DNA of 64,000 nt from NCBI GenBank assembly GCA_012295275.1, contig CM022677.1:16864001-16928000 (forward strand), in the 5' to 3' direction. Every line of letters begins with the position of its first letter. Within the stretch, counting starts at the first letter, position 1. A program made the translations under genes and the position numbers. Source of the DNA: Chrysomallon squamiferum. Its lineage: Eukaryota > Animalia > Mollusca. This document shows, in pieces, positions 14,707 to 62,360 of the stretch. The notes beneath the pieces were generated by a model. It had not been told where the DNA came from and made no database searches. It saw only the letters and a list, made by a program, of their open reading frames with translations.

Positions 14707-15739
14707 TTATTTAAGTGATGACAAAAACATACAATATTTACAAGATTTTGTTTCGGGCACTGAAAATACCAAAGCAGGTATTTGTCCTCGTGTCACATCT
14801 GTAGAAAGTTTTCTTGTACTGAGATCAGATGGCTTTGACTCCGAAAAGCGACAAACAAAAGAGTCAACTTCAATTTCTGATTTACCATTGATTCCATAGC
14901 ATGTGCCTCCATCTCCTCCAGTAATAGTAACATACAAGCTGTACTGAGTGTCTTCAGTAATATGCAGTGAATCGTTGAACTCGACATAATACTCTCCAAA
15001 AACGTGTTCACAGCTCTTTTTCAGTTCAGACCCGGCAAGTATTGTGTCTATTCCTGTGACTGTGACTTTGACGAAGACGCTGACGTTGTAAGTGTGTTCA
15101 TCAGCGTTACCGTACAGTCGAAATCCACGAAGATAAGCTTCTTTGTTTACAGAAAAAGTAATGGCTTCATACTCTTTATCAGAACATGACCAGAAAGGAC
15201 GTATTATTCTATTGAACCGGTTTATTGTAACGATTGGACGAATTATTGCAGATGCCTGAATTCCTATGTTAGGACCCGGTTGATCATGCATCTCCCAGTG
15301 TCTATACATATTGTTTTTTACTATCACAAATTCCAAGCGATCCTGTGTCTCTGACTCTATGAAATACTTCTGATTGCGTAATTGATCGTCATTCGCGACC
15401 TCTCCCAGTGTTCCACGTCTGTTTACTCTTCTAGTCTGCTTTTCTGGGTTTTTTTCAAAAAATAATCCGTGACAAACGTCAGTAAAGTCATCCGACTTCA
15501 AAACTTCGTCGGCATTATCCAAAATGATAAGCAGAGCTCTTCTTCTTTGATTATGTTCATAAAACAGGTGAGCTTTTTCCAGCACGAAGCATGCTTTCTG
15601 CGACCAGCACAACGGAAACTTCGGCTTCAAATATTGAACACACTGCTCTTGTAATGTTGTGATAACGTACTTCCTCGATAAATGCAGCAGACAGGAGACG
15701 TTGTTCTTTGTTGTGACGACGGCATCCGTATAAAGATAG
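14707..15739 (-). CDS. BTB gene 1 terminal exon: BTB C-terminus, shortened BACK, PHR domain (BTBD3/6-like)
   Basis: cacatag| phase 2; YLYTDAVVTTKNNVSCLLHLSRKY is open into the 307-aa ORF. PHR motifs present: AITFSVNK, LRGFRLYG, TDVTRGQIPALVF. Confidence 0.92.
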
Positions 15740-15965
15740 CTATGTGAAAGAATATAGTAACACTTTAAAACAAGAGATAATTATGGGAGATTAATAAATT
15801 AGAAAATAATTAGATTACTAACAAAAACTGTATTGCTATCAACGCTTGTGTCTGTGTGTATGCATCCCTTCCTTACTGTGTTTGTACGTGTTTCCGTGTG
15901 TCTGTGTATGTGTGTGTAATTGTTCGTGTTCTTTTTAGTGAGAGTATGCGTATGCTTTAACATAC

Positions 15966-16223
15966 TTCAAAAAGTTTTCAAAATCGTCTTGCTTCATATC
16001 AGCTAATTTAAAGTCGTCTGGAACGTTTTTTTCTAATGTCTGATGGAAAACTTCGCTTCGTATCTTCAAAATAAAGCTATGTGCTTTAACAACTGTTTCA
16101 TTGTCGCCTATTCGAAATTCAATATCATTGTCTGTTTTGTTATTAAAAACGTATTTCAAACATTGAGTTAGTTTCCTTTCTGCCTGCCATGCTGAGGTTT
16201 CTGGTGAGGCGGCCACGTTTTCA
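15966..16223 (-). CDS. BTB gene 1 exon c (second BTB, N-terminal part)
   Basis: tctgtag| ... |gtatgt, 258 nt, phase 2-2; WQAERKLTQCLKYVFNNKTDNDIEFRIGDNETVVKAHSFILKIRSEVF. Confidence 0.9.
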
Positions 16224-17454
16224 CTACAGAAAAAATAAAATAAAACACAAACAAATAAAACAACAAAAAAACAACAACAAACAAACAAAACAAAGCAAAA
16301 CAAAAAAAAACCTATAAAAAGTGTAATAATAATAAGGACATAGGTTTGTGTCCGTCAAATCTGTTGTTAACAACTGTTGAGATAAAATAAGAGTAAGTCT
16401 GTAGTCACCGCGTCAGGACTACATATTTACAATTAGCTGGAAGTGCTATTTTATATAGACAATCCTATAAACAGAATAAAACGTGCCAGCTACTGTTTCA
16501 CTTTCCCGTTTGATCTGTATACGACTTCTTTTTTCTTTTTCCCTTTTCTGTTATTATTATTAAACAAGTTTGATGTTGAAAAATATGACTTAAAACAGAG
16601 CAGCTTTGTAAGTCTCATGAAAAGCCACTACGATACAAATGCATGAATATAAAGCAATGAAAACCAGCGAAGTGATAATTTACTGGCCCTTAGGACACTT
16701 TTATAGTAATGCTATTCACATAGAAAATAAATTATAAGTACACCTTAATTTGCTCGCTGTATTGCGTATTATAATAATCCATTAAATGATTTAATAAAAG
16801 TCATAGGACTATAGTAAGTTTTATTGACAATTCAGATAAGGGGGAGGGCTTCAGTGTGTGGAGGGCTTCAGTGTGAACAAATGGTGTAGAAAATAGGATA
16901 TGGCGCACATAACTACGGTAGTTTTAAGTGTGTTTCAAACAGGTTTTTCTTTGAGAATAAAATTTTATGCATTTCAGAGATTAATGAGTCATAGAGAACA
17001 GCATTTATTCATGACACTTTTTAAACAGGCTGTTATTTTAACAGGATGATATTCTTACATGAAAATATTTACAGGAATTACTAATCTTAACATTAAAAAT
17101 AATGTTAAATCAAAGCTAACACCAACTCTGAATTAACCCTTATTGCAAATTCAACAACGTTTCTGATATTACTTACCTGAATGTTAGCTCTGCATCTGTT
17201 CACATAAACCTATGATTAACATTCTCGTTAAATTTAATCTGACAGCCTATCAGTAGCCTAAACCCTAATTCTAACACCACCTCGCTATTCCCCTTAATGT
17301 TAACCCATCACAGATCTTAATATTATCCAACCACAATTCTGGACGGAACATAATTTCACCAAAGTATGTCCGGTACAGACTTATGGTTGGATGATGTTAT
17401 ATAAAAACATAACTAATTAACTATCTAAATAAAAAAATAAAAAATAAATACTAT

Positions 17455-17533
<79 letters not shown>

Positions 17534-17585
17534 AATAAGTAAATAAGTAAATAAATATATATATTTTTTGTAATCTTATGCATAC

Positions 17586-17729
17586 AGATGCTCGGTGAAG
17601 TCTTTCGACGACGACTTCATAAAATTCACACACTGCTTTTCTAGTGTTCTGATGATGTACTTCCTCGATAGATTCAGAAGATCGGAGACGTTGTTGTCTG
17701 TTAGGTCGACGTCATCCGTATAAAGATAT
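17586..17729 (-). CDS. BTB gene 1 exon b (first BTB, C-terminal part)
   Basis: tacacag| ... |gtatgc, 144 nt, phase 2-2; YLYTDDVDLTDNNVSDLLNLSRKYIIRTLEKQCVNFMKSSSKDFTEH. Confidence 0.85.
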
Positions 17730-17956
17730 CTGTGTAAAATAATGTATAGTAAGACTTTAAAACGAGAGATAGTGATGGAAGATTTATTAATTAGAAAATA
17801 ATTAAATTACTAACAAAAGTTATTGTTATCAATGTTCGTGTCTGTATGTACGAATCTCTTCCTCACTTTGTTCGTACAGGTGTTTACTTGTGTCTGTGTT
17901 TGTGTTTGTTTCGTGTTTGTGTGTAGATGTTCTTGTTTTTTCTTTTCGTGTGTGTT

Positions 17957-18018
<62 letters not shown>

Positions 18019-18045
18019 TGTGTGTGTGTGTGTGCTTTAACATAC

Positions 18046-18296
18046 TTCAAAAATTCTTCAAAAACTTCTTGCTGCATATCAGCTAATTTAAAGTCGTCTG
18101 GAACAGGGTTTTTTAATATCTGATTGAAAACTTCGCTTCGTATCTTCAAAACAAAGCTATGTGCTTCAACAACTGTTTCATTGTCGCCTATCCGAAATTT
18201 AATATCACTGTCTGTTTTGTTATCAAAAACGTATTTCAAACATTCTGGTAATGTCTTTCCTGCCTGCCATGTTGACGTTGGATCTGAGCTGGCCAT
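18046..18296 (-). CDS. BTB gene 1 first coding exon (first BTB, N-terminal part)
   Basis: Acceptor just before 18303, ATG at 18296; MASSDPTSTWQAGKTLPECLKYVFDNKTDSDIKFRIG...AHSFVLKIRSEVF...FEEFLK|gtatgt. Confidence 0.9.
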
Positions 18297-18943
18297 GTTT
18301 AGACTACATAAAAAAAAAAAAAAAAAAAAAAAAGGAAAGAAAGAAAGAAAGAAAGCCAAACAATAATAATAATAAAAATAGGAATAGGGACAGAAAGGGA
18401 AAAACTAATTATTCGAACATAGAACTGTAACAATTCATACAGATAATAAATAAATAAATAAATAAATAAGATTGAAAAAAATAAAATAAAATAAAAGGAA
18501 AGAAAAAAAAAAAAAAAACAAAACAACAATAACAAAAACAATAATAATAATAATAAATATAAGTGTACATGTCTTACTTCTCTAATCTGTATATCAAAGT
18601 ATTTATTTATTTATTTATTAACAATAGCGTTGTTGTTTTTATTTTGCTTTTTGTTGTTTTGGGATAAAGGTTTTTTATTTTTACTTTACTGTTTTATTTA
18701 TTTTTTGATATTTTTTATTATTGTTGTTTTGTTTTTGTTTTGTTTTTTCTCCTGTGGCGAAGTAATTCATACATAGATGAAATGTAATTATATATATATA
18801 TATAGTGTGCTACTTTTCGTCAGGTACTTTAATAAGGGTAATTAATATCCTAAACAATCCTTTATGTCCCGGTTAAGAATATTTCATGTCTAGACAACCA
18901 ATGTTCAGATCGTGATATAAGTACTTTTACACACACATACACC

Positions 18944-20667: not shown

Positions 20668-20871
20668 CTGAAACACCTCCTTCTTGGTGAGTAGTAATAC
20701 CTGGAACTGAGAACTTTCTGTTTGACAAGGTCACTGAAACACTTCCTTCTTGGTGAGTAGTTATACCTGGAACTGAGAACTTTCTGTTTGACAAGGTCAC
20801 TGAAACACTTCCTTCTTGGTGAGTAGTTATACCTGGAACTGAGAACTTTCTGTTTGACAAGGTCACTGAAA
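20668..20871. repeat. 66-bp tandem repeat x3 upstream of BTB gene 1
   Basis: ctgaaacac recurs at 20668, 20734 and 20800, with a partial fourth start at 20866. Confidence 0.95.
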
Positions 20872-21437
20872 TACTTTCTGTGTGTGGCTGCTGAGAAAGT
20901 CGTGATAAACACGTGACTGAAATTAGATACATCAAAAATTGCGCAACTTGTCACGGTACAGTTTGTGCAGTGTAATGTAACGTATAGTTTAAAACCTGTT
21001 AAAGAAACAAACAGTTATAAATCTGTCATTCCTTATTTTGTCTGTGAAATAGTTATCTTTTTTTTCTCAGAAAGTGTATTTATGAAAAGTTATCGTTAAC
21101 TGTTATGTAGGTCAGATGAAAAAAAAAATTAATAATGTTTTAATAGTTCTGACGACAAGAAGCGTTATAGTAGAATCGTTTAAACTGATACGTTTTTTCT
21201 ATGTACATACTCTGAGTCAAAGTGATCTAAACACAGACGTTACAAATACCACCTTTATTTTTTTTAGTATTTGTTTTTAATTATTATTTATTTATCTGTT
21301 TCACTTATTCCTTTTTAATTTATATACTGGTATTTTTGTTTGTTTGTTTCTTTCATTTTCTTTTCTTTTCTTTCCTTTTCTTTTATTTCACTACAAAAAA
21401 TACAGTATAATATACAATACAGTTAATACGTGCTAAC

Positions 21438-24566: not shown

Positions 24567-24950
24567 AATAACGGATATAACCACCTCTTGAATTGACCAC
24601 TGCAGTGAATCACAGGTGCATAGAATTGACTAAAGTTTTGATTTCTGACACTGGAATACTGTTCCATTCTTGAATGAGCGCTAGGCGAAGTTTGTTGATG
24701 GGTTTGGTTCGATTACGAACAGTTTGCCCACTGATTCGGTCAGTATGAAGCCCTGGTGTGTGAGCAGCAGTAACAGTGGCAGAATCTATAGTGTTCATGA
24801 TATAGCATGCGTTGAAACACGAGGACGTCCACGAAGTAGTGGTATCGCTCGACTGGAACTCCCAACACGCCTTGCAACGTCTTCTGCCGACAAGCCAGCA
24901 TCAAGCATGCCAACTGCCGTTTCGCGTAAATTATTGGGAATTTTTGGCGT
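24567..24950 (-). mobile_element. Tc1-family transposase relic with the DDE core deleted
   Basis: PKIPNNLRETAVGMLDAGLSAEDVARRVG...RGRPRVST, then ISGQTVRNR fused directly to LRLALIQEWNSIPVSEIKTLVNSM...AVVNSRGGYIRY. Confidence 0.88.
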
Positions 24951-26734
24951 ACCAAAAATTCTACAATGTAAAAAACGTTTTTTTTATTTTTTTTATTTTT
25001 TTTATTATTTTTTTCACAATTTTTATTATTATTATTAGTATTATTAGTATTAGTATTATTACAAGAACTACTACTATTATTACAACTCAATCAGAACGAA
25101 CATTTAATGCAATACAATGATACAATCTATTACTTCATACATTTGGAACTATATTACCTACCTCCAACAAACACGCAATAAAATGAATAACTTTCACCAT
25201 TACTACATTTATTATTATTATACCAGTATTGTCATTACTACTACTACTAGTAATACTACTGTTACTGCCAGTACTTATGTCATTATTATCTTTCGACTTT
25301 TATTTCAAATTCTTGGTACAGCTTTTACTCTCTTCTCAGAAAGAGAATCCTACTATGTGATATCTTTCAAAAACAACAACAAACAACAACAACAACACAA
25401 CAACCGAATAATATAAGTATATGTCTCCATTTAAACAAATAATATTGTCCATCTGCTATTACTACTACTGTAATTACAAATTCTGATTCTAATTCTAGGT
25501 CGTAGAACTACTTTTTATTGCTCTTCTGAATCCTTAAAATGTATTTGCTGATTTTGATCTTAGAATTACACTTTTATCAGAAAGAGTTTATTTTTAAATG
25601 GGATGCACAGACATAGATTTAATTTATTAAATTTTTCGAGCGTTGATAAGATCACACAACACAGTATTCAGTGACAGATGAAGAAACTCCTCTGTATCAG
25701 GAATAAGAAGAGACATCTCAAACGATTAATCATTATTACCTCTGCTGTTACAGCCACTACCATTATAACTGCTACTACGATTATTACTAGTAAGACCGCA
25801 CTTATTATTATTATTATTCCTAGAAGAATTTGCTGCCTCTTCTTAGTGAAAACACTAGAAAGAACAAATGAAAAAATATAAATATAGATACATACTCAGT
25901 TCTGAATGTACAAGTGATAATAAGAAAAATAAAATAAGATATCGTAACAATAAATACGTTCGGCACAACTCGGTATTGCTAATATCACTTCTGTTGTTTT
26001 CTATTATATGAAAAATAAATAATGTAGAAACTAGTGGTTTACTCCTCTTGATTTTAATGTGATCTGCAGCATTCTATACGCAACAGATCAAAAACTGCAT
26101 TAAGACGTATCTGACAAAACTGTAAATTGCTTATATGTATAATTGAGACTGAGTGCGATTGTGTATTTGTGTGACTAAATGTTTGCCGGCAAGTAGACGT
26201 AAATAGTTTTAATCATCTTGCATGACGACGGGTCGTTATGATTTTCAGGCATTTCGCATATTGCTTTATGATGGCATATGTTAATAACGTGACTTTATCG
26301 TTACAACACATCGCATCATGAATTAGGAAAATGTTCGATCACATGTGAAAAATCTCCTCTTTTCATTGCCTGAAAAACTATGTTGCTATGGTTGCAATAC
26401 CATTGATGATCATTAAATGTTATCATTTCTAAAAATAATACACGAAGATTCTGCTGATGCATAGTTCTTTCTTGTTGCATACTCTAGTGATAATAAAATA
26501 CTACTACAATTACTAATACGATACTACCACTACTATTTTTGTTATTTAATTTTTGACTTTTTTTTATGTAGTTCTTAGTGATACTTTCTGTCTTGTTGCA
26601 GAAAGCATCACAGTGTGTGATTTATATGAATAAATCATTAATACTAATCAAGCCATTTCAAGCAATGACGTCATCAACACCAGGGAAAACAAATATTATC
26701 AAAAATAACAAGTCAAAGTCACAGCACATTTCAT

Positions 26735-30274: not shown

Positions 30275-31072
30275 AACGTTACTGGTGTCACAGTATGAAT
30301 GAAACATGTCTCCATAATTATGAAACCATAATTATGTGTTGTATGTTTCTGTGATATTGCTATAACTTTTGCTGTTTTTTTTTTTAAAACAAATATTTAC
30401 TGTTTTTGAAAATCCTGTGGCAGCACAAATAAACATTCTTGTTTAAAATTCTTCGTATTATTATTATTTAGTTCTGTTTGACTGACCAATGGTTATTAAT
30501 GCAAAATAATGATAACACTACTGATATAGATAAATACTGACACATGAACCTATATAATGAAAAATGAAACAAAAACCTGTGTCCTAAATAATGAAAAAAA
30601 CAACAGTCTGTGTCTTTGTTAAGAAAACATGAACCTGTCATTTGAATAAAGAAACACAGACGTGTCATGAATAATGAAAAATGGTTCTGCATCCCAAATA
30701 ACAAAATATTAATCTAAGCCTAAAACAGGGTAACATGAACATGTAATGAACTTGAACCTAAATCTTGAATAATTTTGTTTTAATATGACGTAGATACTGA
30801 CACCTGAATGTACATCTTGAATGATGAAAAAGAATGATATAGCTTTAAAAAAGAAAACAGTAACGTATATCTTTAATATGGAAAATAAAATTAGTTTGAA
30901 TAATGAAGTATTAGTCTGTCCTAAATACAGAAACCTGAACATATCTAGTAAAATGTAACGATAAAAAAAATGATGCCTTAAAAAATATAACAAGAACCTG
31001 TATTTTGAATAATTAAAAATGAACTTATATCTAGGAATGTGAAACAGAAACCTACATCTCGATTAATAAACC

Positions 31073-31882
31073 ATTAGCCTGTGTTAATAACGAAACATTA
31101 AGCTGTGTTAATAACGAAACATTAAGCTGTGTTAATAACCAGACATTAAGCTGTGTTAATAACGAAACATTAAGCTGTGTTAATAACGAAACATTAAGTT
31201 ATGTTAATAACGAAACATTAAGCTGTGTTAATAAGGAAACATTAAGCTATGTTAATAACGAAACATTAAGTTATGTTAATAACGAACCATTAAGCTGTGT
31301 TAATAATGAAACATTAAGCTGTGTTAATAAGGAAACATTAAGCTGTGTTAATAACGAAACATTAAGCTGTGTTAATAACGAAACATTAAGTTATGTTAAT
31401 AACGAAACATTAAGCTGTGTTAATAACGAAACATTAAGTTATGTTAATAACGAGACATTAAGCTGTGTTAATAACGAGACATTAAGTTATGTTAATAACG
31501 AGACATTAAGTTATGTTAATAACGAGACATTAAGCTGTGTTAATAACGAGACATTAAGTTATGTTAATAACGAAACATTAAGTTATGTTAATAACGAGAC
31601 ATTAAGCTGTGTTAATAACGAGACATTAAGCTGTGTTAATAACGAGACATTAAGTTATGTTAATAACGAAACATTAAGCTATGTTAATAAGGAAACATTA
31701 AGCTGTGTTAATAACGAAACATTAAGCTGTGTTAATAACGAAACATTAAGCTGTGTTAATAAGGAAACATTAAGCTGTGTTAATAACGAAACATTAAGCT
31801 GTGTTAATAAGGAAACATTAAGCTGTGTTAATAAGGAAACATTAAGCTGTGTTAATAACGAAACATTAAGTTATGTTAATAA
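31073..31882. repeat. 24-bp minisatellite, about 34 units
   Basis: Same unit as 4739-4924, expanded. Confidence 0.96.
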
Positions 31883-37612: not shown

Positions 37613-38727
37613 GCAGATAAACATATAGAGAATCTATGTTTTTCTGTATAAAGCTATGATTAAATCTAAAGTATATTCCAAAAACAGATATTAAACTATT
37701 GAGCTATGTACGAGTTAACTCCCCTACAATTAAAAAAAAAAGAAAAGAAAAGAAAGTGAAGTTTTAGTTAAAATCTAATCATAACCGTGACTTCAAAACT
37801 AATTCTAACATGAATAAAACAATAACCTTAGCTTGAGTTATAATAGTTAATATTATCAGTGCATAACACAGCCGTATCTTGACAAAACGATTTTGTCGAA
37901 TGTGATGTCAGTACCTTAATGCTAACCCTTCAAAAGACTAATCCTAAGTCGTAGCAAATTGTCAACAAATCATCTGTCAGTACGAAATAAGAACATTTAT
38001 TCACCATCACGTACATAATTTGTAAAATATACAGCAAAACAGAAATCCGACAAAGAAAGAAGAAAATAAAAATACGAAGCATTAATAAATAAATAAATAG
38101 CGAGAGAGATTTTATGAAGCACAGAATACAGACATGATGTACAGTGTTGTACAATCTATTCAATGCCTCTGCTTGCATATTTCTCGATACAACCATTACT
38201 CTTGTCTACTTGATTAAACTGCTAATTTTACTTTTACCAGTTTTTCTTTTAGGAGCTGATGTATTGTTTCCTGTCTCAAGAGAGGAAAGAAAAAGATAAG
38301 AGAAAACTGAGAAAAAATATACTTCACAAATGTATTCGTGTACCTGTACATATTTTACATTTTAGACAATTCAAACACAAAAATATATGAAGCAAAGGAT
38401 CCAATAAAGTAAAGGATAAAATTACAAACAGGTATATAATTTGTTTATATTATATTCAGATATTAATACATTTCTTTTATTATATGACAGTTTGAAAAAT
38501 AATAAATTGATAAGTTGATAAATCAATAAATAAATAAATGAGATGTTTATAAACATTTTCCACGTATCTGTTTGGTAGATATCAGTCCATTAGAAAGAAA
38601 AGTTTCAAATCAAATCAAGTGTGTATGACGTCATCCTGCTGTCTGACATTATCAGTAACACAAAACGTAAAGCAAATATAAAGAATAAATAAATAAAACA
38701 GAAAAGTAACAAAAAAACAACAACATA

Positions 38728-39777
38728 TTACTCCAGTGAAGCCTCAAGTTTGCAAGGTATTTTTTCTTGCACTAAAAATACCAAAGCAGGTATTTGTCCT
38801 CGTGTCACATCTGTACGAAGTCTTCTTGTACTGTGCTGAGATGGCGTTGACTCAGAAAAGCTACAAACAAAAGAGTCAACTTCAATTTCTGGTTTACCAT
38901 CAGTTCCATACCATGTGTCTCTATGACATCTTTCTCCTCCAGTAATAGTAACATGCAAGCTGTACTGAGTGTCTTTAATAATCTCCAGTGGACATCTGAA
39001 CACGACATCATACTCTCCAGAAACGTCTTCATATCTCTGATTCAGTTCAGACCCGTCAAGTATTTCGTCTGTTCTTTTGTCTGTGACGAAGACTCTGACG
39101 TCGTAGTTTTGTGGATTACCGTAATTGTACAGCCGAAATCCAACAAGCTGAGCGTTTTTGTTTACTGAGAAAGTAATGGTTTCATCCTCTTCATCAGAAA
39201 TTGACCAGGAACCATGTATTATTCCATCGAACCGCTTTATTGTAATCTGTTTTTTAGGAATAACTGCAGCTCTCTTTTTGGGGTTAAAAGGTAAACCACC
39301 TATACCAGTCTTCACCCAGTGTTTCAAAATTGTGTATTCTTCTGTCTCAGTGAGTATGTGAGTGGGTGTCACGTGTTCTACAAAATACATCTGATTGAGT
39401 AATGGATAACGCACGTGCATGACGACCTCTCCCAGTAATCTACGTCTGATTTCTCCACTCGTCTCTATTCTTCGTTTCCTGCACGCGCTGTCAGCCCACT
39501 TCACAGCGGCTTCAAAAACATTTTTCTCATCTGCTTTCAGTTCGTCTGATCGTACGATCTCAACCAGACATTCGTGACAAAGATAGGTTACTTCATCCGA
39601 CTTCAAAACTTCGTCGCCATTTTCCAAAATGTAAAGCAGAGCTTTTTTTCTTAGATCATATTCACCAGACACATGAGCTTGTTCCAGCACGACGCATGCA
39701 TTCTTTGGCAACAACGACTCCTCCAAATATCTCCGCTCTTCTTGTGTTGTGATAAAGTACGTCCTTGGTAGAGACAT
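38728..39777 (-). CDS. BTB gene 2 terminal exon: intact BACK + PHR domains
   Basis: 349-aa ORF with LCHECLVEIVRSDELKADEKNVFEAAVKWA...LLGEVVMHVRYPLL (BACK) and TITFSVNK..LVGFRLY...TDVTRGQIPALVF (PHR). The ancestral acceptor is mutated acacag>acacat near 39809; an in-phase cryptic caag| acceptor precedes 39763. Confidence 0.85.
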   Translation of the reverse strand: MSLPRTYFITTQEERRYLEESLLPKNACVVLEQAHVSGEYDLRKKALLYILENGDEVLKSDEVTYLCHECLVEIVRSDELKADEKNVFEAAVKWADSACRKRRIETSGEIRRRLLGEVVMHVRYPLLNQMYFVEHVTPTHILTETEEYTILKHWVKTGIGGLPFNPKKRAAVIPKKQITIKRFDGIIHGSWSISDEEDETITFSVNKNAQLVGFRLYNYGNPQNYDVRVFVTDKRTDEILDGSELNQRYEDVSGEYDVVFRCPLEIIKDTQYSLHVTITGGERCHRDTWYGTDGKPEIEVDSFVCSFSESTPSQHSTRRLRTDVTRGQIPALVFLVQEKIPCKLEASLE

Positions 39778-39959
39778 CAGACAGATTACGTCATCCGTAA
39801 ACAGATATATGTGTAAAACAATGCATAGTAAGATTTTAAAACGAGAGATAATTATGGGAGATTAATTAATTAGAAAATAATTAGATTACCAACAAAAATT
39901 GTATTGTTCATGTCTGTATGTATTTCTCTCTTCCTCACTGTTTTCGTATCTGTGTTTCC

Positions 39960-39996
<37 letters not shown>

Positions 39997-40030
39997 CTAC
40001 AAATAGTACTAATAATAATACTTCACATAC

Positions 40031-40090
40031 TTCAACACTTCAGACAGCTGACCGTGGACTTTTTGGTTCCAGTCATCCTTATAAAGATAC
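40031..40090 (-). CDS. BTB gene 2 putative micro-exon B4
   Basis: tacacag| ... |gtatgt, 60 nt, phase 2-2, open: YLYKDDWNQKVHGQLSEVL(K). Confidence 0.5.
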
Positions 40091-40411
40091 CTGTGTAAAA
40101 GAATGCATAGTTATTTTATTAGAAAATAATTACATTACTAACAAAAATTATATTGTTCATATATGTCTCTCTTCCTCACTGTTTTCGTTTCTGTGTTTCC
40201 TTGTGTCTGTGTGTGTGTGTGTGTGCGTGTGCGTATTTTAATACAGTTTAAACATTCTATAAAAAGGTCATTGTATTCTCGAAATGATGCTGTTAACACC
40301 TTTCTCTGTTTTCGTACTAAAAACGTGTTCAAACCATTCAGTTAATTCATTTTCTGTCTGCCAAATTGATGTTGCGTCTGTCGTGGCCGTGTTTTAACAA
40401 CAACAACAATG

Positions 40412-40442
<31 letters not shown>

Positions 40443-40449
40443 CACATAC

Positions 40450-40548
40450 TTCCATTCCAGTGTGGTGTACTTCAACCGTAGACGCAGGTGACCGGTGATA
40501 TTGTTGTTTGTTAGGATGATATCATGCGTAAAAACCTTCATAATAAGA
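40450..40548 (-). CDS. BTB gene 2 putative micro-exon B3
   Basis: ttttaaag| (shifted acceptor) ... |gtatgt, 99 nt, phase 2-2, open: LIMKVFTHDIILTNNNITGHLRLRLKYTTLEW(K). Confidence 0.4.
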
Positions 40549-40728
40549 CTTTAAAACGACATATAATTAGGGGAGATTAATTAATTAGAAAATAATTAGA
40601 TTACTAACAAAATCTCTATTGTTTTGAACATTTATATCTGTATGTATGTCTCTCTCCCTCACTGTGTTAGTATGTGTGTTTAGAGATATCTGTGTTAATG
40701 TGTTTGTGTTCCTCTGTGTGCGTGTCGG

Positions 40729-40762
<34 letters not shown>

Positions 40763-40940
40763 CGTATTTTAATATATTTTAAACATTCTATAAAAAGGTC
40801 ATTGTATTCTCGAAGTGATGCTGTTAACACCTTTCTCTGTTTTCGTACTAAAAACGTGTTCAAACCATTCAGTTAATTCATTTTCTGTCTGCCAACTTGA
40901 GGTTGCGTCTGTGGTGGCCGTGTTTTAACAACAACAACAA

Positions 40941-40994
<54 letters not shown>

Positions 40995-41001
40995 CACATA
41001 C

Positions 41002-41094
41002 TTCAATTTCAGTGCTTCGATGTACTCCCAACGTAGACGCAACTGACCTGTCACGCTATCGCCTGTCCGGATCACGCCATGTGTATGACAGTCG
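41002..41094 (-). CDS. BTB gene 2 putative micro-exon B2
   Basis: tacacag| ... |gtatgt, 93 nt, phase 2-2, open: DCHTHGVIRTGDSVTGQLRLRWEYIEALKL(K). Confidence 0.5.
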
Positions 41095-41455
41095 CTGTGT
41101 AAAAGAATGCATAGTAAGACTTTAAAACGACATATAATTATGGGAGATTAATTAATTAGAAAATAATTAGATAACTAACAAAATCTCTATTGTTATCAAC
41201 GTTCATATCTCTATGTATGTCTACCTTCCTCACTGTGTTAGTATGTGTTTTTAGAGATATCTGTGTAAATGTGTTTGTGTTCCTGTGTGGGAATGTGTGT
41301 TTGTGTGTGTGAGTGTTTGTTTGTGTGTGTGTGTGAGTGTTTGTTTGTGTGTGTGTGTGTGTTTGTTTGTGTGTGTGTGTGTTTGTGTGTGTGTGTTTGT
41401 TTGTGTGTGTGTGTGTGTGTTTGTGTGGGTGTGTGTTTGTGTGTGTGAGTGTTTG

Positions 41456-41487
<32 letters not shown>

Positions 41488-41535
41488 AGTGTTTGCTTGT
41501 GTGTGTGTGTGTGTTTGTGTGTGTGAGTGTTTGTT

Positions 41536-41575
<40 letters not shown>

Positions 41576-41604
41576 TGAGAGTGCGCGCGCGAGTTTTAAC
41601 ATAT

Positions 41605-41751
41605 TTTAAACATTCTATAAAAATATGATTGTGTCCTCGAAGAAATATAATATCGCTCTCTGTTTTGGTACTAAAAACGTGTTCAAACCATCCGATTAAT
41701 TCATTTGCTGTCTGCCAACTTGATGTTGCAGATGTGGTGTCAATGTTTTCA
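41605..41751 (-). pseudogene. Shrunken BTB N-part exon relic A2 (others at ~42067-42183, ~40778-40928, ~40247-40397, stub ~39990-39996)
   Basis: ENIDTTSATSSWQTANELIGWFEHVFSTKTESDIIFLRGHNHIFIECLK is an in-frame deletion derivative of the 258-nt exon. The donor is mutated GT>AT. Confidence 0.7.
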
Positions 41752-41785
41752 CTACAAATAGTACTAATAATAATACTTCACATAC

Positions 41786-41845
41786 TTCAACACTTCAGGC
41801 AGCTGACGGAGGACTTTTTGGTTGAAGTCATCCTTATAAAGATAC
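41786..41845 (-). CDS. BTB gene 2 putative micro-exon B1
   Basis: tacacag| ... |gtatgt, 60 nt, phase 2-2, open: YLYKDDFNQKVLRQLPEVL(K). Confidence 0.5.
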
Positions 41846-42298
41846 CTGTGTAAAAGAATGCATAGTAAGGCTTTAAAACGATATATGATTATGGTAGATT
41901 ATTTTATTAGAAAATAATTAGATTACTAACAAAATATCTATTATTATCAACGTTCATATCTCTATGTATGTCTCTCTTCCTCACTATGACTGTATGTGTG
42001 TTTCCATCTATCTATATATGTGTGTGTGTTCGTGTGTTGTGTCTATGTGTGTGTGTTTTCAAATATTTTAAACATTCTATAAAAAATGTTATTCTGCTCG
42101 TAAAGTGATACTGTTAAAACCTTTTCGGCACGGAATTTAAAACATTCTTTTTTGTCTGCCATCCTCCGTTTGTAGTATTTTCACTAAAAATATTAAAAGA
42201 AAAAATTAAAATAAAAAAAATAATAATAAAAAATATAATGGGGAGAGAATACGGAAAAAAAAATTGTTCGAACATAGAAGTGCAACAATTCGTAGAGC

Positions 42299-42342
<44 letters not shown>

Positions 42343-42361
42343 TTAACAACAACTATAATTA

Positions 42362-42399
<38 letters not shown>

Positions 42400-43120
42400 A
42401 TAATAATAATAATAATAGTAGTAGTAATAATAATACGAAGAAGAAGAAGAACCTACTACTAAATATCATTTTAAATATTTCCGTGTACAGATCAGCGATC
42501 TTATATAGCGACTCACACTGTAATGATCAGTTTGTTATATTTCTATACAACTATGACCGGTACACGGACACATTTCAAAAACTAAACAACTGTAATTTCT
42601 AACAAGCCGCTATTCTTATTATTATAATTATTATTATTATAAGCAGACATGTCTTGTCACAGTCAGGTAAAGATTATTTCACTGTGGGACAATCGCAATG
42701 TACTTATGGTCATTTATACCAATTTACTCCTCCAAAAGACAAAACAACTATCCGAAAATGACAAATTTAAAACGAAACACTATATAAGAAAACAAAATAA
42801 TAATAATAATAAAGTAAGAAAAATAAAGGAATAAGATGCGCTGTTTTTAAGGTAGAAAACAGTATAAAATATCTTTTAATTTAAAATTCCTGGTCGACAG
42901 TTTCTTATAAGCGACTTTTTTCTGTCTGTCGACTAGCTATAAATAACAAATTTCATCGAACCATGATAAATGAAATAAAACAAAAAATAAAATAAATAAA
43001 TAAAATAAAAATGAAGTAAGCAATGTATAACAAAAGACGTAAATAAAAACAATAATTGCCATAATAGTGTAGTAGTAGTAATAGTACTGTTAGTAGTAGT
43101 AGTAGTAGTAATACTAATAG

Positions 43121-43161
<41 letters not shown>

Positions 43162-44241
43162 ATAATAATAATAATAGCACACTACAGTCAGGGTATACGT
43201 AACGTTTTTCATATCAAAATAAAAAAAACAAACAAAAAAAGCAAAAGAATAAATAAATAAAAAATACACTTAAATAATCTACTTTGGTATACTTAGTAGT
43301 AAATTAAGAACACTGGAATCGTCAAAACATAATAAATACTTTTAATATGGCCGACATAATTTATTTTTCTTTGTGTACTTTTAACTATCAAACCTTCTAC
43401 TGATAAACAAGTGACTGACCTCAAAAATATAAATGTCATCAACTGTCACTTTGTTAGGTTTGAATATCAGATTAAAACAAACAAATCGTGCTACGAGACA
43501 TATGTATATTCATCTTATATAACTTTTCTTTACAACAGATTAAGTATTACTAGAATACATTATTTATACGTAAGTTTTAAAATGTGTGTAATAATAATAA
43601 TAATAATAATACAGTATACTAAATATAAGTCTACATGTCTTATGTCTCTAATCTGTATATCAAAGTAAGCTAACAGGTGACTTTTTGTTACGTAGATCAT
43701 ATAAAAATAGCGACTCACTGGTACACAAGACACATGTAGCTCATAAGTGTAGATATAAACAGTAAAAATATGAAATGATTTACATTTGTCAGCTTTGTGA
43801 GAAGATAAATATTTTAAATAATGACGATAAAGATAACCAACTCATTTCCAACAAACAAAACAAACAAACAAACTGGTAAACAGAAAATAATACAATTATA
43901 TGAGCTAGCATTATTATTACATTTTTTATTTGCTCGTTGCACACACCAGAGCGGTAAGTAAACTTTCGTAGTTGTACAATATATTTTCAGGTGAGGGTCT
44001 ACCTCATGTTTTTTATGTGTTTAAAAACCTCACAGTTTAATGACCAGTTTGTTTGTCACCTGCACATCAATAACAACAATAATCCTTTTACGTTTTCACT
44101 GAAAATGAAAACAAATACAATAACATTTTATACACTCGTTCGAAAGTGTGATAAACCAACACAAAAATTAAATGAGAACGAAGAAATGAATTAAGAAAGG
44201 AAGAAAGAAAGAACGAAAAGAAGTAACGAAAGGAAGGAAGA

Positions 44242-44357
44242 ACTTCATATAATTCACACACTGCTTTTCTAGTGTTCTGATGATGTACTTCCTCGATAGA
44301 TTCAGAAGATCGGAGACGTTGTTGTCTGTTAGGTCGACGTCATCCGTATAAAGATAT
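44242..44357 (-). pseudogene. BTB gene 2 exon b' lacking its donor
   Basis: YLYTDDVDLTDNNVSDLLNLSRKYIIRTLEKQCVNYMK, then an abrupt junction to intronic sequence. Confidence 0.7.
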
Positions 44358-44662
44358 CTGTGTAAAATAATGTATAGTAAGACTTTAAAACGAGAGATAG
44401 TTATGGGAGATTTATTAATTAGAAACTAATTAAATTACTAAGAAAAGTTGTATTGTTATCAATGTTCGTGTCTGTATGTATGAATCTCTTCCTCACTTTG
44501 TTCGTACAGGTGTTTTTTACTTGTGTCTGTGTTTGTGTTTTTTCGTGTTTGTGTGTAGATGTTCTTTTTTTTCTTTTTGTGTGTTTATGTGTGTGTGTGC
44601 GTGTGAGTGTGTGTGTGTGTGTAAGTGTGTGTGAGTGTGTGTGAGTGTGTGCTTTAACATAC

Positions 44663-44914
44663 TTCAAACATTCTTCAAAATCTTCTGGCTGCATATCAGC
44701 TAACTTAAAGTCGTCTGGAACTGGGTTTTTTAATGTCTGATCGAAAACTTCGCTTCCTGTCTTCAAGCTATGTGCTTCAGAAACTGTTTCATTGTCGCCT
44801 ATCCGAAATTTAATATCACTGTGTGTTTTGTTGTCAAAAACGTATTTGAAACCTTCAGTTACTGTCTTTCCTGTCTGCCATGTTGAGGCTGGACCTAAGC
44901 TGGCTATGTTTAGA
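44663..44914 (-). CDS. BTB gene 2 exon a' (BTB N-terminal part; start ATG changed to ATA)
   Basis: tatgtag| ... |gtatgt, 252 nt, phase 2-2, open, with a 2-codon in-frame deletion (AHSLKTGSEVF). Confidence 0.65.
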
Positions 44915-47187: not shown

Positions 47188-50100
47188 AACGTTTTTCATA
47201 TCAAAATTAAAAAAAAAAAGCAAAAGAATAAATAAATAAAAAAGACACTTAAATAATCTACTTGTTAGAGAACAAACTTTGATATACTTAGTAGTAAATT
47301 AAGAACACTGGAATCGTCAAAACATAATAAATACTTTTAATATGGCCGACTTAATTTACTTTTCTTTGTGTACTTTTAACTATCAAACCTTCTACTGATA
47401 AACAAGTGACTGACCTCAAAAATATAAATGTCATCAACTGTCACTTTGTTAGGTTTGAATATCAGATTAAAACAAACAAATCGTGCTACGAGACATATGT
47501 ATATTCATCTTATATAAATTTTCTTTACAACAGATTAAGTATTACTAGAATGCATTATTTATACGTAAGTTTTAAAATGTGTGTAATAATAATAATAATA
47601 ATAATACAGTATACTAAATATAAGTCTACATGTCTTATGTCTCTAATCTGTATATCAAAGTAAGCTAACGAAGGTGACTTTTTTGTTACGTAGATCATAT
47701 AAAAATAGCGACTCACTGGTACACAAGACACATGTAGCTCATAAGTGTAGATATAAACAGTAAAAATATGAAATGATTTACATTTGTCAGCTTTGTGAGA
47801 AGATAAATATTTTAAATAATGACGATAAAGATAACCAACTCATTTCCAATAAACAAAACAAACAAACAAACTGGTAAACAGAAAATAATACAATTATATG
47901 AGCTAGCATTATTATTACATTTTTTACTTGCTCGTTGCACACACCAGAGCGGTAAGTAAACTTTCGTAGTTGTACAATACATTTTCAGGTGAGGGTCTGC
48001 CTCATGTTTTTTTATGTGTTTAAAAACCTCACAGTTTAATGACCAGTTTGTTTGTCACCTGCACATCAATAACAACGATAATGCTTTTATGTTTTCACTG
48101 AAAATGAAAACAAATACAATAACATTTTATACACTCGTTCGAAAGTGTGATAAACCAACACGAAAATTAAATGAGAACGAAGGAATGAATTAAGAAAGGA
48201 AGAAAGAAAGAACGAAAGGAAGCAACGAAAGGGGGAATAAATGTGTTATTTAAGGACACAGATTTGTGTGCGTCAAAATTGTTGTTAACAACTGTTGAGA
48301 TAAAATAAGAGTAAGTCTGTAGTCACCGCGTCAGGACTACATATTTACTATTAGCTGGAAGTGCTATTTTATATAGACAATCCTATAAACAGAATAACAT
48401 GTGCCAGCTATTGTTTCACTTTCCCGTTCGATCTGTATACGACTTCTTTTTTCCTTTTCCCCTTTCTGTTATTATTATTAAACCAGTTTGATGTTTAAAA
48501 ATATCACTTAAAATAGAGCAGCTTTGTAAAGTCTCATGAAAAGCCACTACGATACAAATGCATGAATATAAAGCAATGAAAACCAGCGAAGCGATAATTT
48601 ACTGGCCCTTAGGACACTTTTATAGTAAAGCTATTCACATAGAAAATAAATGATAACTACACCTTAATTTGCTTGCTTTGTTGCATATTATAATGATCCA
48701 TTAAATAATTTAATAAAAGTCACAATAAGTTTTATTGACATTTGAGATAAAGTGGAGGGATACAGTGTGTGTTGGCTACAATGTGGACAGAAATGGTGTA
48801 GAAAGTAGGACATGGTGGACAGAAAGAGGGTAGTAAGAGGACGCCAAAAGACAGTAGTATTGAGTGTTAATATAGTTTTAAGGGTGTTTTAAACAGATTT
48901 TTCTTTGACAATAAAATTTCACGTATTTCAGAGATTGATGAGTCGTAGAGAACAGCATTTATTAATGACCCGTTCTAAATACGCTGTTATTTTAACAGGA
49001 TGATATTCTTACATGAAAATATTTACAGGAATTACTAATCTTAACATTAAATTTAACCTTAAATCAACACCAACATCAAATCTTAGGAAGATAGTTGATG
49101 AAAAGTAGACATATATATATTATTTCATAGACACACACACACACAGACACACAGACACACGTTTAACATAACTACATATATATATATATTTTTACTTCAC
49201 TCGCATCACCAGTGGATCAAGTTACAGCTAACAAGTAATATTTGTTTCTCATGTAGATCAGATAAAAGCAGTGTGTCACAGTAGAACAAAGGTATATATT
49301 TTACGACTATCTGACAAATTCATTAATAGAGTGTTTGCTCATAAGTGTAGATATAAACTGTAAAAAGTATGAAATTATTTCCATTTGTCAACATTTTGAG
49401 AAGATAAATGATTTAAGAAACGACGATAAAGACAACAACTACAACCAAAGTACTTCCAATAACCGAAACAAACAAACAAACTGCTGCTACCAATTTATAT
49501 TTTTATGTATTAACAATATTGCTGCCTACCTGAAAAGTCCTGATTGATAATTGAACGTTTTTCATATCAAAATTAAAAAAAAAAAGCAAAAGAATAAATA
49601 AATAAAAAAGACACTTAAATAATCTACTTGTTAGAGAACAAACTTTGATATACTTAGTAGTAAATTAAGAACACTGGAATCGTCAAAACATAATAAATAC
49701 TTTTAATATGGCCGACTTAATTTACTTTTCTTTGTGTACTTTTAACTATCAAACCTTCTACTGATAAACAAGTGACTGACCTCAAAAATATAAATGTCAT
49801 CAACTGTCACTTTGTTAGGTTTGAATATCAGATTAAAACAAACAAATCGTGCTACGAGACATATGTATATTCATCTTATATAAATTTTCTTTACAACAGA
49901 TTACTAGAATGCATTATTTATACGTAAGTTTTAAAATGTGTGTAATAATAATAATAATAATAATACAGTATACTAAATATAAGTCTACATGTCTTATGTC
50001 TCTAATCTGTATATCAAAGTAAGCTAACAGGTGACTTTTTGTTACGTAGATCATATAAAAATAGCGACTCACTGGTACACAAGACACATGTAGCTCATAA

Positions 50101-51440
50101 GTGTAGATATAAACAGTAAAAATATGAAATGATTTACATTTGTCAGCTTTGTGAGAAGATAAATATTTTAAATAATGACGATAAAGATAACCAACTCATT
50201 TCCAATAAACAAAACAAACAAACAAACTGGTAAACAGAAAATAATACAATTATATGAGCTAGCATTATTATTACATTTTTTACTTGCTCGTTGCACACAC
50301 CAGAGCGGTAAGTAAACTTTCGTAGTTGTACAATACATTTTCAGGTGAGGGTCTGCCTCATGTTTTTTTATGTGTTTAAAAACCTCACAGTTTAATGACC
50401 AGTTTGTTTGTCACCTGCACATCAATAACAACGATAATGCTTTTATGTTTTCACTGAAAATTAAAACAAATACAATAACATTTTATACACTCGTTCGAAA
50501 GTGTGATAAACCAACACGAAAATTAAATGAGAACGAAGGAATGAATTAAGAAAGGAAGAAAGAAAGAACGAAAGGAAGCAACGAAAGGGGGAATAAATGT
50601 GTTATTTAAGGACACAGATTTGTGTGCGTCAAAATTGTTGTTAACAACTGTTGAGATAAAATAAGAGTAAGTCTGTAGTCACCGCGTCAGGACTACATAT
50701 TTACTATTAGCTGGAAGTGCTATTTTATATAGACAATCCTATAAACAGAATAACATGTGCCAGCTATTGTTTCACTTTCCCGTTCGATCTGTATACGACT
50801 TCTTTTTTCCTTTTCCCCTTTCTGTTATTATTATTAAACCAGTTTGATGTTTAAAAATATCACTTAAAATAGAGCAGCTTTGTAAAGTCTCATGAAAAGC
50901 CACTACGATACAAATGCATGAATATAAAGCAATGAAAACCAGCGAAGCGATAATTTACTGGCCCTAAGGACACTTTTATAGTAAAGCTATTCACATAGAA
51001 AATAAATGATAACTACACCTTAATTTGCTTGCTTTGTTGCATATTATAATGATCCATTAAATAATTTAATAAAAGTCACAATAAGTCTTATTGACATTTC
51101 AGATAAAGTGGAGGGATACAGTGTGTGTTGGCTACAATGTGGACAGAAATGGTGTAGAAAGTAGGACATGGTGAACAGAAAGAGGGTAGTAAGAGGACGC
51201 CAAAAGACAGTAGTATTGAGTGTTAAGATAGTTTTAAGGGTGTTTTAAACAGGTTTTTCTTTGAGAATAAAATGTCCCGCATTTCAGGGATTAATGAGTC
51301 GTAGAGAACAGCATTTATTAATGACACGTTCTAAATACGCTGTTATTTTAACAGGATGATATTCTTACATGAAAATATTTACAGGAATTGCTAATCTTAA
51401 CATTAAATTTAACCTTAAATCAACACTAACACTAAACCTT
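47188..51440. repeat. Local ~2.37 kb tandem duplication of BTB intron-derived DNA
   Basis: aacgtttttcatatc starts matching tracts at 47188 and 49554. 46190-48230 also matches 42230-44240, and 48250-49080 matches 16333-17130. Confidence 0.88.
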
Positions 51441-53105: not shown

Positions 53106-53554
53106 GGGATAAATTTAAAACCAAATAACCTTTCTTTTGTACAATTTAATTCCACTGAAGAAAATTAAGTTAACAAAAGTGCACATTTAATATAATGACA
53201 TCATGGTAAAGATACATTTAAAAACTATTTTTCTGAGGGTTTTTAAATATATTTTTCAGAAGGTAGTCTCGTGACCATGCTATCATGTTACAGATATGTT
53301 TGTATCTGATGTAGGTCAGATGAGAATACAAGTATACCCGAGTGTTGTTTACGACAATCTGACAAGGTCATTGTTAAATCTACTCTTAAACCAACTCTAA
53401 TACCAACCCTGAATTAGTTCTAAATGCAACAACGTTTCTGATATTACTTACATGAATCTTAACTCTACGTCTGCCTACCTAAACATTTTCATAATTTTAT
53501 CTCGAAATCAAATAATATCGATATTATTATTAATAAAAATACGAAATTCCTACA

Positions 53555-53813: not shown

Positions 53814-54017
53814 CTGAAACACCTCCTTCTTGGTGAGTAGTAATACCTGGAACTGAGAACTTTCTGTTTGACAAGGTCACTGAAACACTTCCTTCTTGGT
53901 GAGTAGTTATACCTGGAACTGAGAACTTTCTGTTTGACAAGGTCACTGAAACACTTCCTTCTTGGTGAGTAGTTATACCTGGAACTGAGAACTTTCTGTT
54001 TGACAAGGTCACTGAAA
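53814..54017. repeat. 66-bp tandem repeat x3, duplicate
   Basis: Same as 20668-20871. Confidence 0.95.
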
Positions 54018-54586
54018 TACTTTCTGTGTGTGGCTGCTAAGAAAGTCGTGATAAACACGTGACTGAAATTAGATACATTAAAAATTGCTCAACTTGTCAC
54101 GGTACAGTTTGTGCAGTGTAATGTAACGTATAGTTAAAAACCTGTTAAAGAAACAAACAGTTATAAATCTGTCATTCATTATTTTGTCTGTGAAATATTT
54201 ATCTTTTTTCTCAGAAAGTGTATTTATGAAAAGTTATCGTTAACTGTTATGTAGGTCAGATGAAAAAAAAAATAATAATAATGTATTAATAGTTCTGACG
54301 ACAAGAAGCGTTATAGTAGAATCGTTTAAACTGATACGTTTTTTCTGTGTACATACTCTGAGTCAAAGTGATCTAAACACAGACGCTACAAATACCACCT
54401 TTATTTTGTTTTAGTATTTCTTTTTAATTATTATTTATTTATCTGTTTCACTTATTTCTTTTTAATTTATATACTGGTATTTTTGTTTGTTTCTTTCTTT
54501 CATTTTCTTTTCTTTTCTTTCCTTTTCTTTTATTTCACTACAAAAAATACAGTATAATATAGAATACAGTTAATACGTGCTAACAC

Positions 54587-58614: not shown

Positions 58615-58652
58615 GTCACATATAAGGTGTCATGCAGATGTATTCATTTCAG

Positions 58653-58718
58653 GTCAGAGGGTTACAGACACTTGGTGAAAATATCGCAGACAATGGAGGA
58701 GTCAAAGCTGCTTACGCT
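58653..58718 (+). CDS. M13 peptidase copy C exon with the third zinc ligand
   Basis: tttcag| VRGLQTLGENIADNGGVKAAYA |gtctgt; contains the ExxxD motif. Confidence 0.93.
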
Positions 58719-59411
58719 GTCTGTAGCAATAAGGGAAACTGTTGTTGTAGTAGTGATATAAGAAGTAGTAGTAGTAGTAACAGTAGTAATAGTAATAGTA
58801 GTAACTGTAGTAGTAGTAGTAGTTGTGGGAGTAGTAGTAGTAGCAGTAATCGTAGTGGTAATAGTATTAGAAATAATCGTGGTAATAGTATAGTAGTAGT
58901 AGTAGTAGCAATTAAAGTCATATCACGAAACGAAAGCAAAAAATAGTAGTAATAATAAACAAATAAAAATAAAAATAAATTAAAACAAATTTAGAAATAA
59001 AACAAATAAATGAGAAGAAAGGGACACAGCCAAAAAGTATAGTGGTAGTAGTTGCTGAAGTAGTAGCTGTGATAGTAACAGTGTGGTAGAACATGTACTA
59101 GGTATTGTACTTTTACTTATTATGTCTATGTCTGTCTAGGCACCCATCCGTCGGTCTGTCTGAATCTATCTGTCAGTTTATCTATCTGTTTACATTATTA
59201 TTTAGTTTATTATGTCATTGTCTGTTTATCAGTCTATATATTAATTTATATTATTATTTAGATTATTACGTAACTGTCTGTTTATTAGTCTATCTGTATA
59301 CTTACATTATATTTTAGATTATTTTGTAATTTTCTGTTTATCAATTTACCTATTTATTTGGATTATTATTTAGATTATTATGTAATTGTCTCTTTATCAG
59401 TCTGTCTATTT

Positions 59412-62270: not shown

Positions 62271-62360
62271 AAATGATTGTGTCTAGATCTATTTATCAGC
62301 CTATCTATGTGTTTGTTTATTAATGTACAGAATATTCATATTTTTCATACAAAATTACAG

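Follow-up and report, generated by a model that had tools for sequence, protein, structure and literature searches.

A tandem array of spliced, frame-preserving exons upstream of a BACK-PHR exon in Chrysomallon squamiferum: a possible replacement for a lost BTB domain

In a 64,000-nucleotide stretch of the genome of the vent snail Chrysomallon squamiferum (Animalia, Mollusca; assembly GCA_012295275.1, contig CM022677.1, positions 16,864,001 to 16,928,000 of the forward strand; hereafter "the window", in whose coordinates all positions are given), a gene of the BTB-BACK-PHR family has lost the exon that encoded its own BTB domain, and a tandem array of short exons stands in its place. A first-pass annotation, made from the sequence alone, had proposed four such exons (B1 to B4), and on this central point it was right: the B segments are real, spliced and frame-preserving exons, and a contig assembled from RNA joins B1, B2 and B3. 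Our preferred interpretation, which we advance tentatively, is that this serially spliced and selected array forms a new front end of a BACK-PHR protein that lacks a BTB domain.

All parts of the array lie on the minus strand (Table 1). Eleven sequencing runs were listed, and the last exon of the gene, which encodes the end of the BTB domain together with BACK and PHR, is present wholly or partly in nine of them, two of which are RNA, both in the form of assembled contigs. The informative record is a contig of 319 nucleotides (nt) from RNA run X6 (depth 5.51), in which B1 (record positions 54-115), B2 (116-208, with one difference) and B3 (209-309, with none) are joined at the borders given by the first-pass annotation, the B1-B2 joint being taken from the table of joints and the B2-B3 joint from the table of aligned pieces. 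The B1 piece had been aligned to the site of B4 (40031-40092) but bears the five letters that are specific to B1. In the alignment to 38600-40195 this was the only piece of an X6 contig placed there, and in that to 39995-41240 a contig of equal length and depth resolved into the three exons. Preceding B1 in this contig is a 53-nt loose end that maps once in the window, inside A1, the first of the degenerate BTB exons interleaved with the B exons, and so defines a further exon, A1'. A 30-letter loose end maps only to 42123, the contig covers 55 of the 63 nt of A1', and the new donor lies at 42120. The contig thus contains three splice joins at AG/GT borders, with implied introns of 275, 691 and 453 nt. 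The expectation that a', the N-terminal BTB exon lying upstream, would be the exon joined to B1 was not borne out: A1' takes that place in the contig, and a' is followed by its own second exon, b0. Of the junctions that RNA data had been expected to reveal, those between B exons were found, whereas none was seen from a B exon to position 39763. We also considered that the donor GTATGT might be a chance motif in dead sequence, which the spliced contig refutes for B1 and B2.

In DNA runs X2 and X5, the sole records over the 3' half of B4 continue into the intron without a splice, and the depth of the bin 40004-40057 is accounted for by one genomic record in each. Separately, a contig of DNA run X7 joins B-type flanks (40025 to 41094, depth 102, side 24) around intervening sequence, a weak observation; other exon starts occur at B-type flanks among the loose ends of the same run, and in X5 (40023-40161) a B4-type exon stands behind a B1-type intron. 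These X7 and X5 joints hint at further cassettes or at allele shuffling.

A1' and the four B exons are all multiples of three in length, all in phase 2-2, and all open in one frame, and each B exon is bounded by AG and GTATGTGAAGTA; the coordinates, lengths, phases, open frames and AG/GTATGT borders first assigned to B1-B4 stand, as does the shifted acceptor of B3, which is in use about 25 nt upstream of the lost one. The acceptors of B1, B2 and B4 are near-identical and one donor is common to all four, although the exons themselves are only 58-73% alike. Across the chain of A1' and B1-B3 (315 nt) there are no stops in the ancestral frame, vs. six and nine in the other two. Extended through B4 and the last exon from 39763, the chain would give 469 open codons with the first in-frame methionine in B3, and the array exons would make up about one quarter of this predicted frame (375 of about 1410 nt). 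The original label of "micro-exon" does not apply, since at 60-99 nt these exons exceed the 51-nt limit (PMC4317164).

The origin of the array can be read from its parts. Each B exon corresponds to a truncated form of the large last exon of the family, reduced to its initial 60-100 nt, and b0, which is placed between a' and the array with its acceptor before 44357, serves as a little-changed stand-in for their ancestor. Because the letters past the B donor match the coding tail of b0 and not the intron of exon A, this donor was most likely created from former coding sequence. All of A1-A4 have lost their original donor and share a deletion of about 110 nt, which suggests that A died before the module was copied; A3 and A4 both have a 4-nt insertion and a stop, and A2, although dead, remains open. 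The earlier description of the A exons as degenerate is accurate as to these donors and as to the acceptors of A3 and A4, but not as to A1, whose first 63 nt are spliced to B1.

Exon lengths provide stronger evidence for the array than does the absence of stops. Among indels in non-coding duplicates within the window, 14 of 76 are multiples of three (16,515 aligned bases), as are four of 25 outside simple repeats; that four independent exon classes should all be multiples of three has a probability of about 0.012, and that all five internal B indels, as placed in the alignment, should be so has a probability of 2e-4 at the neutral rate or 0.004 at a rate of one third. The B-specific indels and splice shifts postdate the death of A, yet every net length is a multiple of three: in A1', non-triplet deletions are compensated by the new donor, and in B3, which lost its acceptor, one further upstream is used. 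A reading of the middle of B1 as frame-shifted relative to the ancestor was dropped, as alignment with B2, B3 and B4 favours an in-frame arrangement.

The B exons have changed faster than the introns that flank them. B2 and B3 differ at 24 of 69 exon sites vs. 18 of 305 flanking sites (p=1.7e-9), and B1 and B2 at 29 of 57 vs. 16 of 155 (p=1.5e-9). As first reported, B1 and B4 differ at five nucleotides, all of them amino-acid-changing, and no difference occurs in the 34-nt intron stretch that follows (0 of 38 sites); taken alone, this contrast is non-significant (Fisher p=0.34 for 5 of 57 exon sites vs. 8 of 133 in the flanks; amino-acid excess, p=0.57). In a codon model that uses the upstream introns as a clock, omega (the ratio of amino-acid-changing to silent rates, dN/dS) is 3.3-3.4 on the B branches, with p about 1e-6, in all four gap placements. 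B1 is separated from b0 by about 19.5 differences that change an amino acid and 0.5 that are silent (p=0.005). Among eight pairwise comparisons of B exons, an excess of amino-acid change reaches an uncorrected p<0.05 in three, each of which includes B1 or B4. The comparison of dN/dS and intron divergence that had been suggested as a check therefore succeeds in part: the exons are faster than the introns and the B1/B4 lineage has changed mostly at amino-acid sites, but B2 has not. The B exons are probably under selection, and selection of a diversifying kind would shape the exons of the array.

A similar pattern appears in the remainder of the gene. The two last exons in the window have an overall omega of 1.46 (p=0.025), and for the two halves of PHR (38731-39250 vs. 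14710-15230) omega is 2.9 and 4.5 (pooled p=0.0009), values that come from one paralogue pair whose halves were pooled after the regions had been seen. Past the 3' end of the two PHR copies the flanks are about 96% identical. For the BTB domain, represented by three full A exons in the window, omega is 0.92-1.31.

The last exon matches both BACK (PF07707, 50.9 bits; cut-off 20.9) and PHR (PF08005, 61.6 bits), and its predicted structure is a helical BACK plus PHR (mean predicted local distance difference test score 71.7, predicted template modelling score 0.50), with the PHR of human BTBD2 (3no8) as the best match of the model (E 1.1e-14). Its deletions are triplet-only, and its own BTB exon is gone. 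Two defects recognised at the outset are confirmed: a' has ATA in place of ATG, and the last exon needs a cryptic acceptor, its native AG having become AT, so that the first AG downstream gives a start at 39763 in phase 2. No intact BTB domain is present in the array, A5 being deleted and A1-A4 lacking about 110 nt, and against a profile of the BTB tail the B exons score 4.4-12.6 bits vs. 52.7 for b0. Cullin-3 binding takes the BTB domain and the 3-box jointly (PMC3597819), and the BTB domain of Btbd6 also serves in partner capture (bioRxiv 10.1101/575910). Because the BTB core is lost and Cullin-3 docks on BTB and 3-box, the product of the array and the BACK-PHR exon would not be a normal adaptor; the variable adaptor isoforms first envisaged, with the usual docking to Cullin-3, are improbable for any product that lacks the degenerate a' exon. 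That exon is a drifting copy of an exon of the BTB-only gene in the other half of the window (omega 0.92 vs. this copy), and it gives no Pfam BTB match.

We propose the following history. The ancestral module would have comprised BTB exon A together with its intron and roughly 110 nt from the start of the large last exon. This module would then have lost the middle of A and its donor, the GTATGT donor would have arisen from the old coding tail, and the altered module would have been copied four to five times. A1', B1, B2 and B3, spliced serially, would supply a front end replacing the lost BTB domain, the chain continuing by putative joins from B3 to B4 and from B4 to 39763, and the translated product might act as a variable binder or decoy, not as a normal Cullin-3 adaptor. 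Translation could start at any of several candidates: an upstream exon ending at 53479, a late methionine in a', the three 39-nt exons that we call A0, or the methionine in B3. Besides the A0 segment listed in Table 1, copies stand at 48059-48097 and 50415-50453 (minus strand), each a 39-nt AG...GT segment that contains a short leucine-rich stretch and a methionine in frame; the three A0 segments could extend the array upstream or contribute to a weak signal peptide.

Several observations weigh against this interpretation. Support for splicing comes from one contig of one run; RNA run X9 (share 0.13) has no records on the array and run X7 does not cover B2 or B3, results that filters can cause and that do not amount to absence. 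The last 10 nt of the X6 contig fall at a masked repeat, where B4 and the intron of B3 are both possible. No X6 contig uses 39763, where again filters can drop records, and the sole X6 record there (39704-39857, depth 2.3) carries no splice; together with intronic contigs in the same library, it indicates that DNA or pre-mRNA is present. Out-of-frame ATGs precede the first in-frame methionine, which lies in B3. Open frames by themselves are weak evidence, the simulated probabilities that the B exons would be stop-free being 0.70, 0.47, 0.59 and 0.19. When the codon model is applied to the exons alone, omega is 1.7 and not significant (p=0.16-0.17), and introns that are conserved or homogenised near acceptors may inflate the value obtained with the intron clock. 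B2 has an omega of 0.40-0.56 with raised silent change, and six of its 24 differences from B3 are CpG-type. The B exon alignments were gapped by hand, and p values are uncorrected for multiple tests.

If symmetric exons are free to be included in any subset, the array would act as a combinatorial cassette that gives one BACK-PHR protein many N-terminal variants, as the first-pass annotation had supposed. All exons tested, including a' (252 nt) and the three candidate A0 segments, are in phase 2-2 and multiples of three, such that skips would keep the frame; the near-identical acceptors of B1, B2 and B4 and the common donor are consistent with this model, rare isoforms would be dropped from assembled contigs, and the weak X7 joint hints at other B-type cassettes elsewhere. 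However, the only transcript seen has B1, B2 and B3 in order, with neither a skip nor a mutually exclusive choice, and no skip joint is listed for X6 or X9, among assembled contigs that drop rare isoforms. Moreover, symmetry follows automatically from the copying of one phase 2-2 module and carries no implication of skipping. We consider this model unlikely.

It is slightly less probable again that the chain reads through the donor of B3 or B4 to a stop, yielding a short protein or a non-coding RNA and leaving the BACK-PHR exon separate or dead. The ambiguous last 10 nt of the contig would allow this, and read-through would meet a stop at codon 26 (B1 and B4), 66 (B3) or 71 (B2); the BTB-only gene in the other half of the window already ends shortly past the same point. 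The native acceptor of the last exon is dead, and neither a join to 39763 nor any join to B4 or the BACK-PHR exon is seen among X6 contigs. Such a product fits poorly with a last exon whose frame is open for about 360 codons, whose deletions are triplet-only and whose PHR part shows an amino-acid excess. X6 contigs with few differences map onto this exon, which has no BTB exon of its own and in which the first usable AG shares the phase of the array.

The least probable alternative is a transcribed, decaying multi-BTB pseudogene, with accidental splicing, an inherited or lucky frame, and change due to CpG decay and gene conversion with many paralogues. In its favour, a' drifts, every copy of A is damaged, the native acceptor of the last exon no longer works, and the flanks of this mosaic locus are far more alike than its genes; the family is very high-copy in DNA runs, exon-only omega is not significantly above 1, B2 has its silent excess, and the four simulated stop-free values multiply to a P of about 0.04. 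Against decay stand net lengths that are all multiples of three even where non-triplet deletions and a new splice site were needed (A1', B3), a B1/B4 lineage changed almost only at amino-acid sites, and splice signals near-identical around exons that are 58-73% alike. The caveat that this is a decaying multi-BTB gene is thus a good account of the origin of the array and a poorer fit to its present state.

On the best reading, the gene belongs to a greatly expanded family of the BTBD3/6 type. Among named proteins, those most similar to the last exon are "BTB/POZ domain-containing protein 2-like" of Gigantopelta aegis (41-46% identity), a species that supplies seven of the nine matches. There are 56 BTBD6-type copies in C. 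squamiferum and 35 in G. aegis, in tandem clusters (PMC7736800), and in G. aegis BTBD6 was grouped with immunity-related expansions (PMC7895826); the consulted text of both papers is silent on splicing or selection in the BTBD6 expansion. In DNA run X2, the region 38600-39950 around the last exon has a summed contig depth of about 60,000 vs. a depth of about 26-36 for locus-specific records, an excess of up to about a thousandfold that suggests many more family copies than the 35-56 annotated, although it is not valid as a copy count or as an expression level.

With the BTB-BACK-PHR family (BTBD1/2/3/6) the gene shares BACK, PHR, tandem clustering and the site at which the exons are split; it differs in that the BTB exon is lost and an exon array lies in its place. 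None of 42 relatives examined has an array like this one, and two of the 42 have a weak second match (E 0.048 and 0.3). A scan of metagenomes for the shared acceptor returned three loci, each matching 20-24 nt without BTB similarity, which we attribute to chance. A protein search with B3 against 1.84 billion representatives gave no matches, and alignment of the four exons to longer proteins gave none among 307 candidates; both are weak tests. We found no report of an exon array in a BTB-BACK-PHR gene, and nothing on BTB splicing in Chrysomallon, in a search of largely open-access literature.

Among known systems, the micro-exon genes (MEGs) of schistosomes resemble this locus in having short symmetric exons in series and a high dN/dS in some exons (PMC4350168). 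The coding region of a MEG, however, consists mostly of symmetric exons of very small size, whereas the exons here are 60-99 nt and occupy about a quarter of the frame. MEGs, which have been described from flatworms only, all encode a signal peptide and generate variants by skipping (PMC4350168). The exons here derive from a BTB domain, and the one contig seen has no skip, in a type of record from which rare forms are lost. Dscam-type arrays likewise consist of tandemly duplicated homologous exons in one gene (PMC1397879, PMC9013439), and here too homologous exons stand in tandem within one transcript, as defines tandem exon duplication. Unlike the one-exon-per-transcript choice of Dscam, B1, B2 and B3 occur together in one contig, and each unit is a fragment of a terminal exon that has gained a new donor, as opposed to a complete internal exon. 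The F-box and MATH-BTB adaptors of nematodes also form large birth-and-death families with positive selection in the presumed substrate-binding domain, which here would be PHR; in those adaptors the Cullin-binding part is conserved (PMC4334554), whereas here BTB itself is broken and its remains diversify. It is doubtful, though conceivable, that the locus exemplifies a MEG-like combinatorial system in a mollusc, with skippable, positively selected exons made from adaptor-gene debris and recurring in paralogues, which would give a repertoire of PHR proteins with variable tips for the recognition of symbionts or pathogens.

Table 1. Positions of the array, the adjoining exons and the comparison genes within the window
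Feature	Position	Strand	Remarks
Last exon (BTB tail, BACK, PHR)	38728..39808	minus	Open frame, about 360 codons
A5 trace	39990..39996	minus	Acceptor and 7 nt left of the last exon's own BTB exon
B4	40090-40031	minus	60 nt; copied recently from B1, with intact splice sites
A4 remnant	40240..40393	minus	96% identical to A3; dead
B3	40548-40450	minus	99 nt; shifted acceptor; in RNA contig
A3 remnant	40770..40925	minus	Acceptor and donor gone, 4-nt insertion and stop; skipped in RNA contig
B2	41094-41002	minus	93 nt; in RNA contig
A2 remnant	41598..41751	minus	Acceptor retained, donor gone; skipped in RNA contig
B1	41845-41786	minus	60 nt; in RNA contig
A1'	42183-42121	minus	63 nt, phase 2-2; derived from A remnant 1 through the new donor GTTTTA
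A0 candidate exon	44060..44098	minus	39 nt, symmetric (phase 2-2), in-frame Met; judged from sequence only
b0	44240..44357	minus	Second exon of a', start of BTB tail; shortened by local duplication
a'	44663..44914	minus	BTB N-terminal exon, 252 nt, phase 2-2; ATG to ATA, two-codon deletion
Candidate first-exon end	53452..53492	minus	Two possible donors, the upstream one giving an in-frame start, phase 2; a call from the letters alone
Unit 1 comparison paralogues	14707..18303	minus	Without array
Unit 1 BTB-only gene	18046-18303 and 17576-17729	minus	Exon a with ATG; short exon b with stop
Unit 1 BTB-PHR gene	15966-16223 and 14707-15739	minus	Exon A and large last exon

The window, 64 kb of AT-rich and microsatellite-rich animal DNA, is made up of two large tandem units. 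Unit 2 holds, in order, a', b0, a duplicated 2-kb spacer, A1-B1-A2-B2-A3-B3-A4-B4, the 7-nt trace of A5 and the last exon. In unit 1 there are two plain minus-strand genes, one BTB-only and one BTB-PHR; the split between BTB exon and large last exon is at the same place in all copies in the window. The locus is a mosaic, in that the flanks of the units are about 95-96% identical and the genes only 73-78%, a disparity that makes gene conversion with other paralogues likely; such conversion could add to the signals of selection.

Both genes of unit 1 show features of their own. The BTB-only mini-gene (17576-18303, minus strand) is apparently intact: its splice sites are good, and its frame closes shortly beyond the BTB tail. 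Its product might serve other family members as a dominant-negative form or a dimer partner. In the BTB-PHR gene (14707-16223, minus strand), GTG replaces ATG and several in-frame deletions take out most of BACK, for which there is no Pfam match; despite these deletions its frame is still open to the end of PHR. Elsewhere in the window, tandem repeats with periods near 89, 24 and 66 nt (474-2632, 59165-62283, 31063-31882, 20668-20879 and 53814-54025) are partly common to both units. A short Peptidase_M13 match at 58626-58943 (plus strand; E 1.9e-4, under the Pfam cut-off) may represent an exon of neprilysin where the tandem unit ends, and at 24613-25035 lie short open frames that we take to resemble the end of a Tc1/mariner transposase (one frame was scanned, with no Pfam match).

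In our assessment, the origins of exon arrays such as the schistosome MEGs are hard to see in old families. This locus appears to show the birth of a symmetric exon array with each step readable in one window: the ancestral exon is represented by b0 and its twin in unit 1, the new donor can be traced to coding sequence, live and dead copies lie next to each other, and in two cases a new splice site has restored the frame. The expansion of BTBD6 in vent snails has been interpreted as an adaptation of the nervous system (PMC7736800). The excess of amino-acid change in PHR and in the B exons points instead to recognition in an arms race, and calls that interpretation into question; and if skipping of these exons is real, the array would give a mollusc a novel means of diversifying its proteins.

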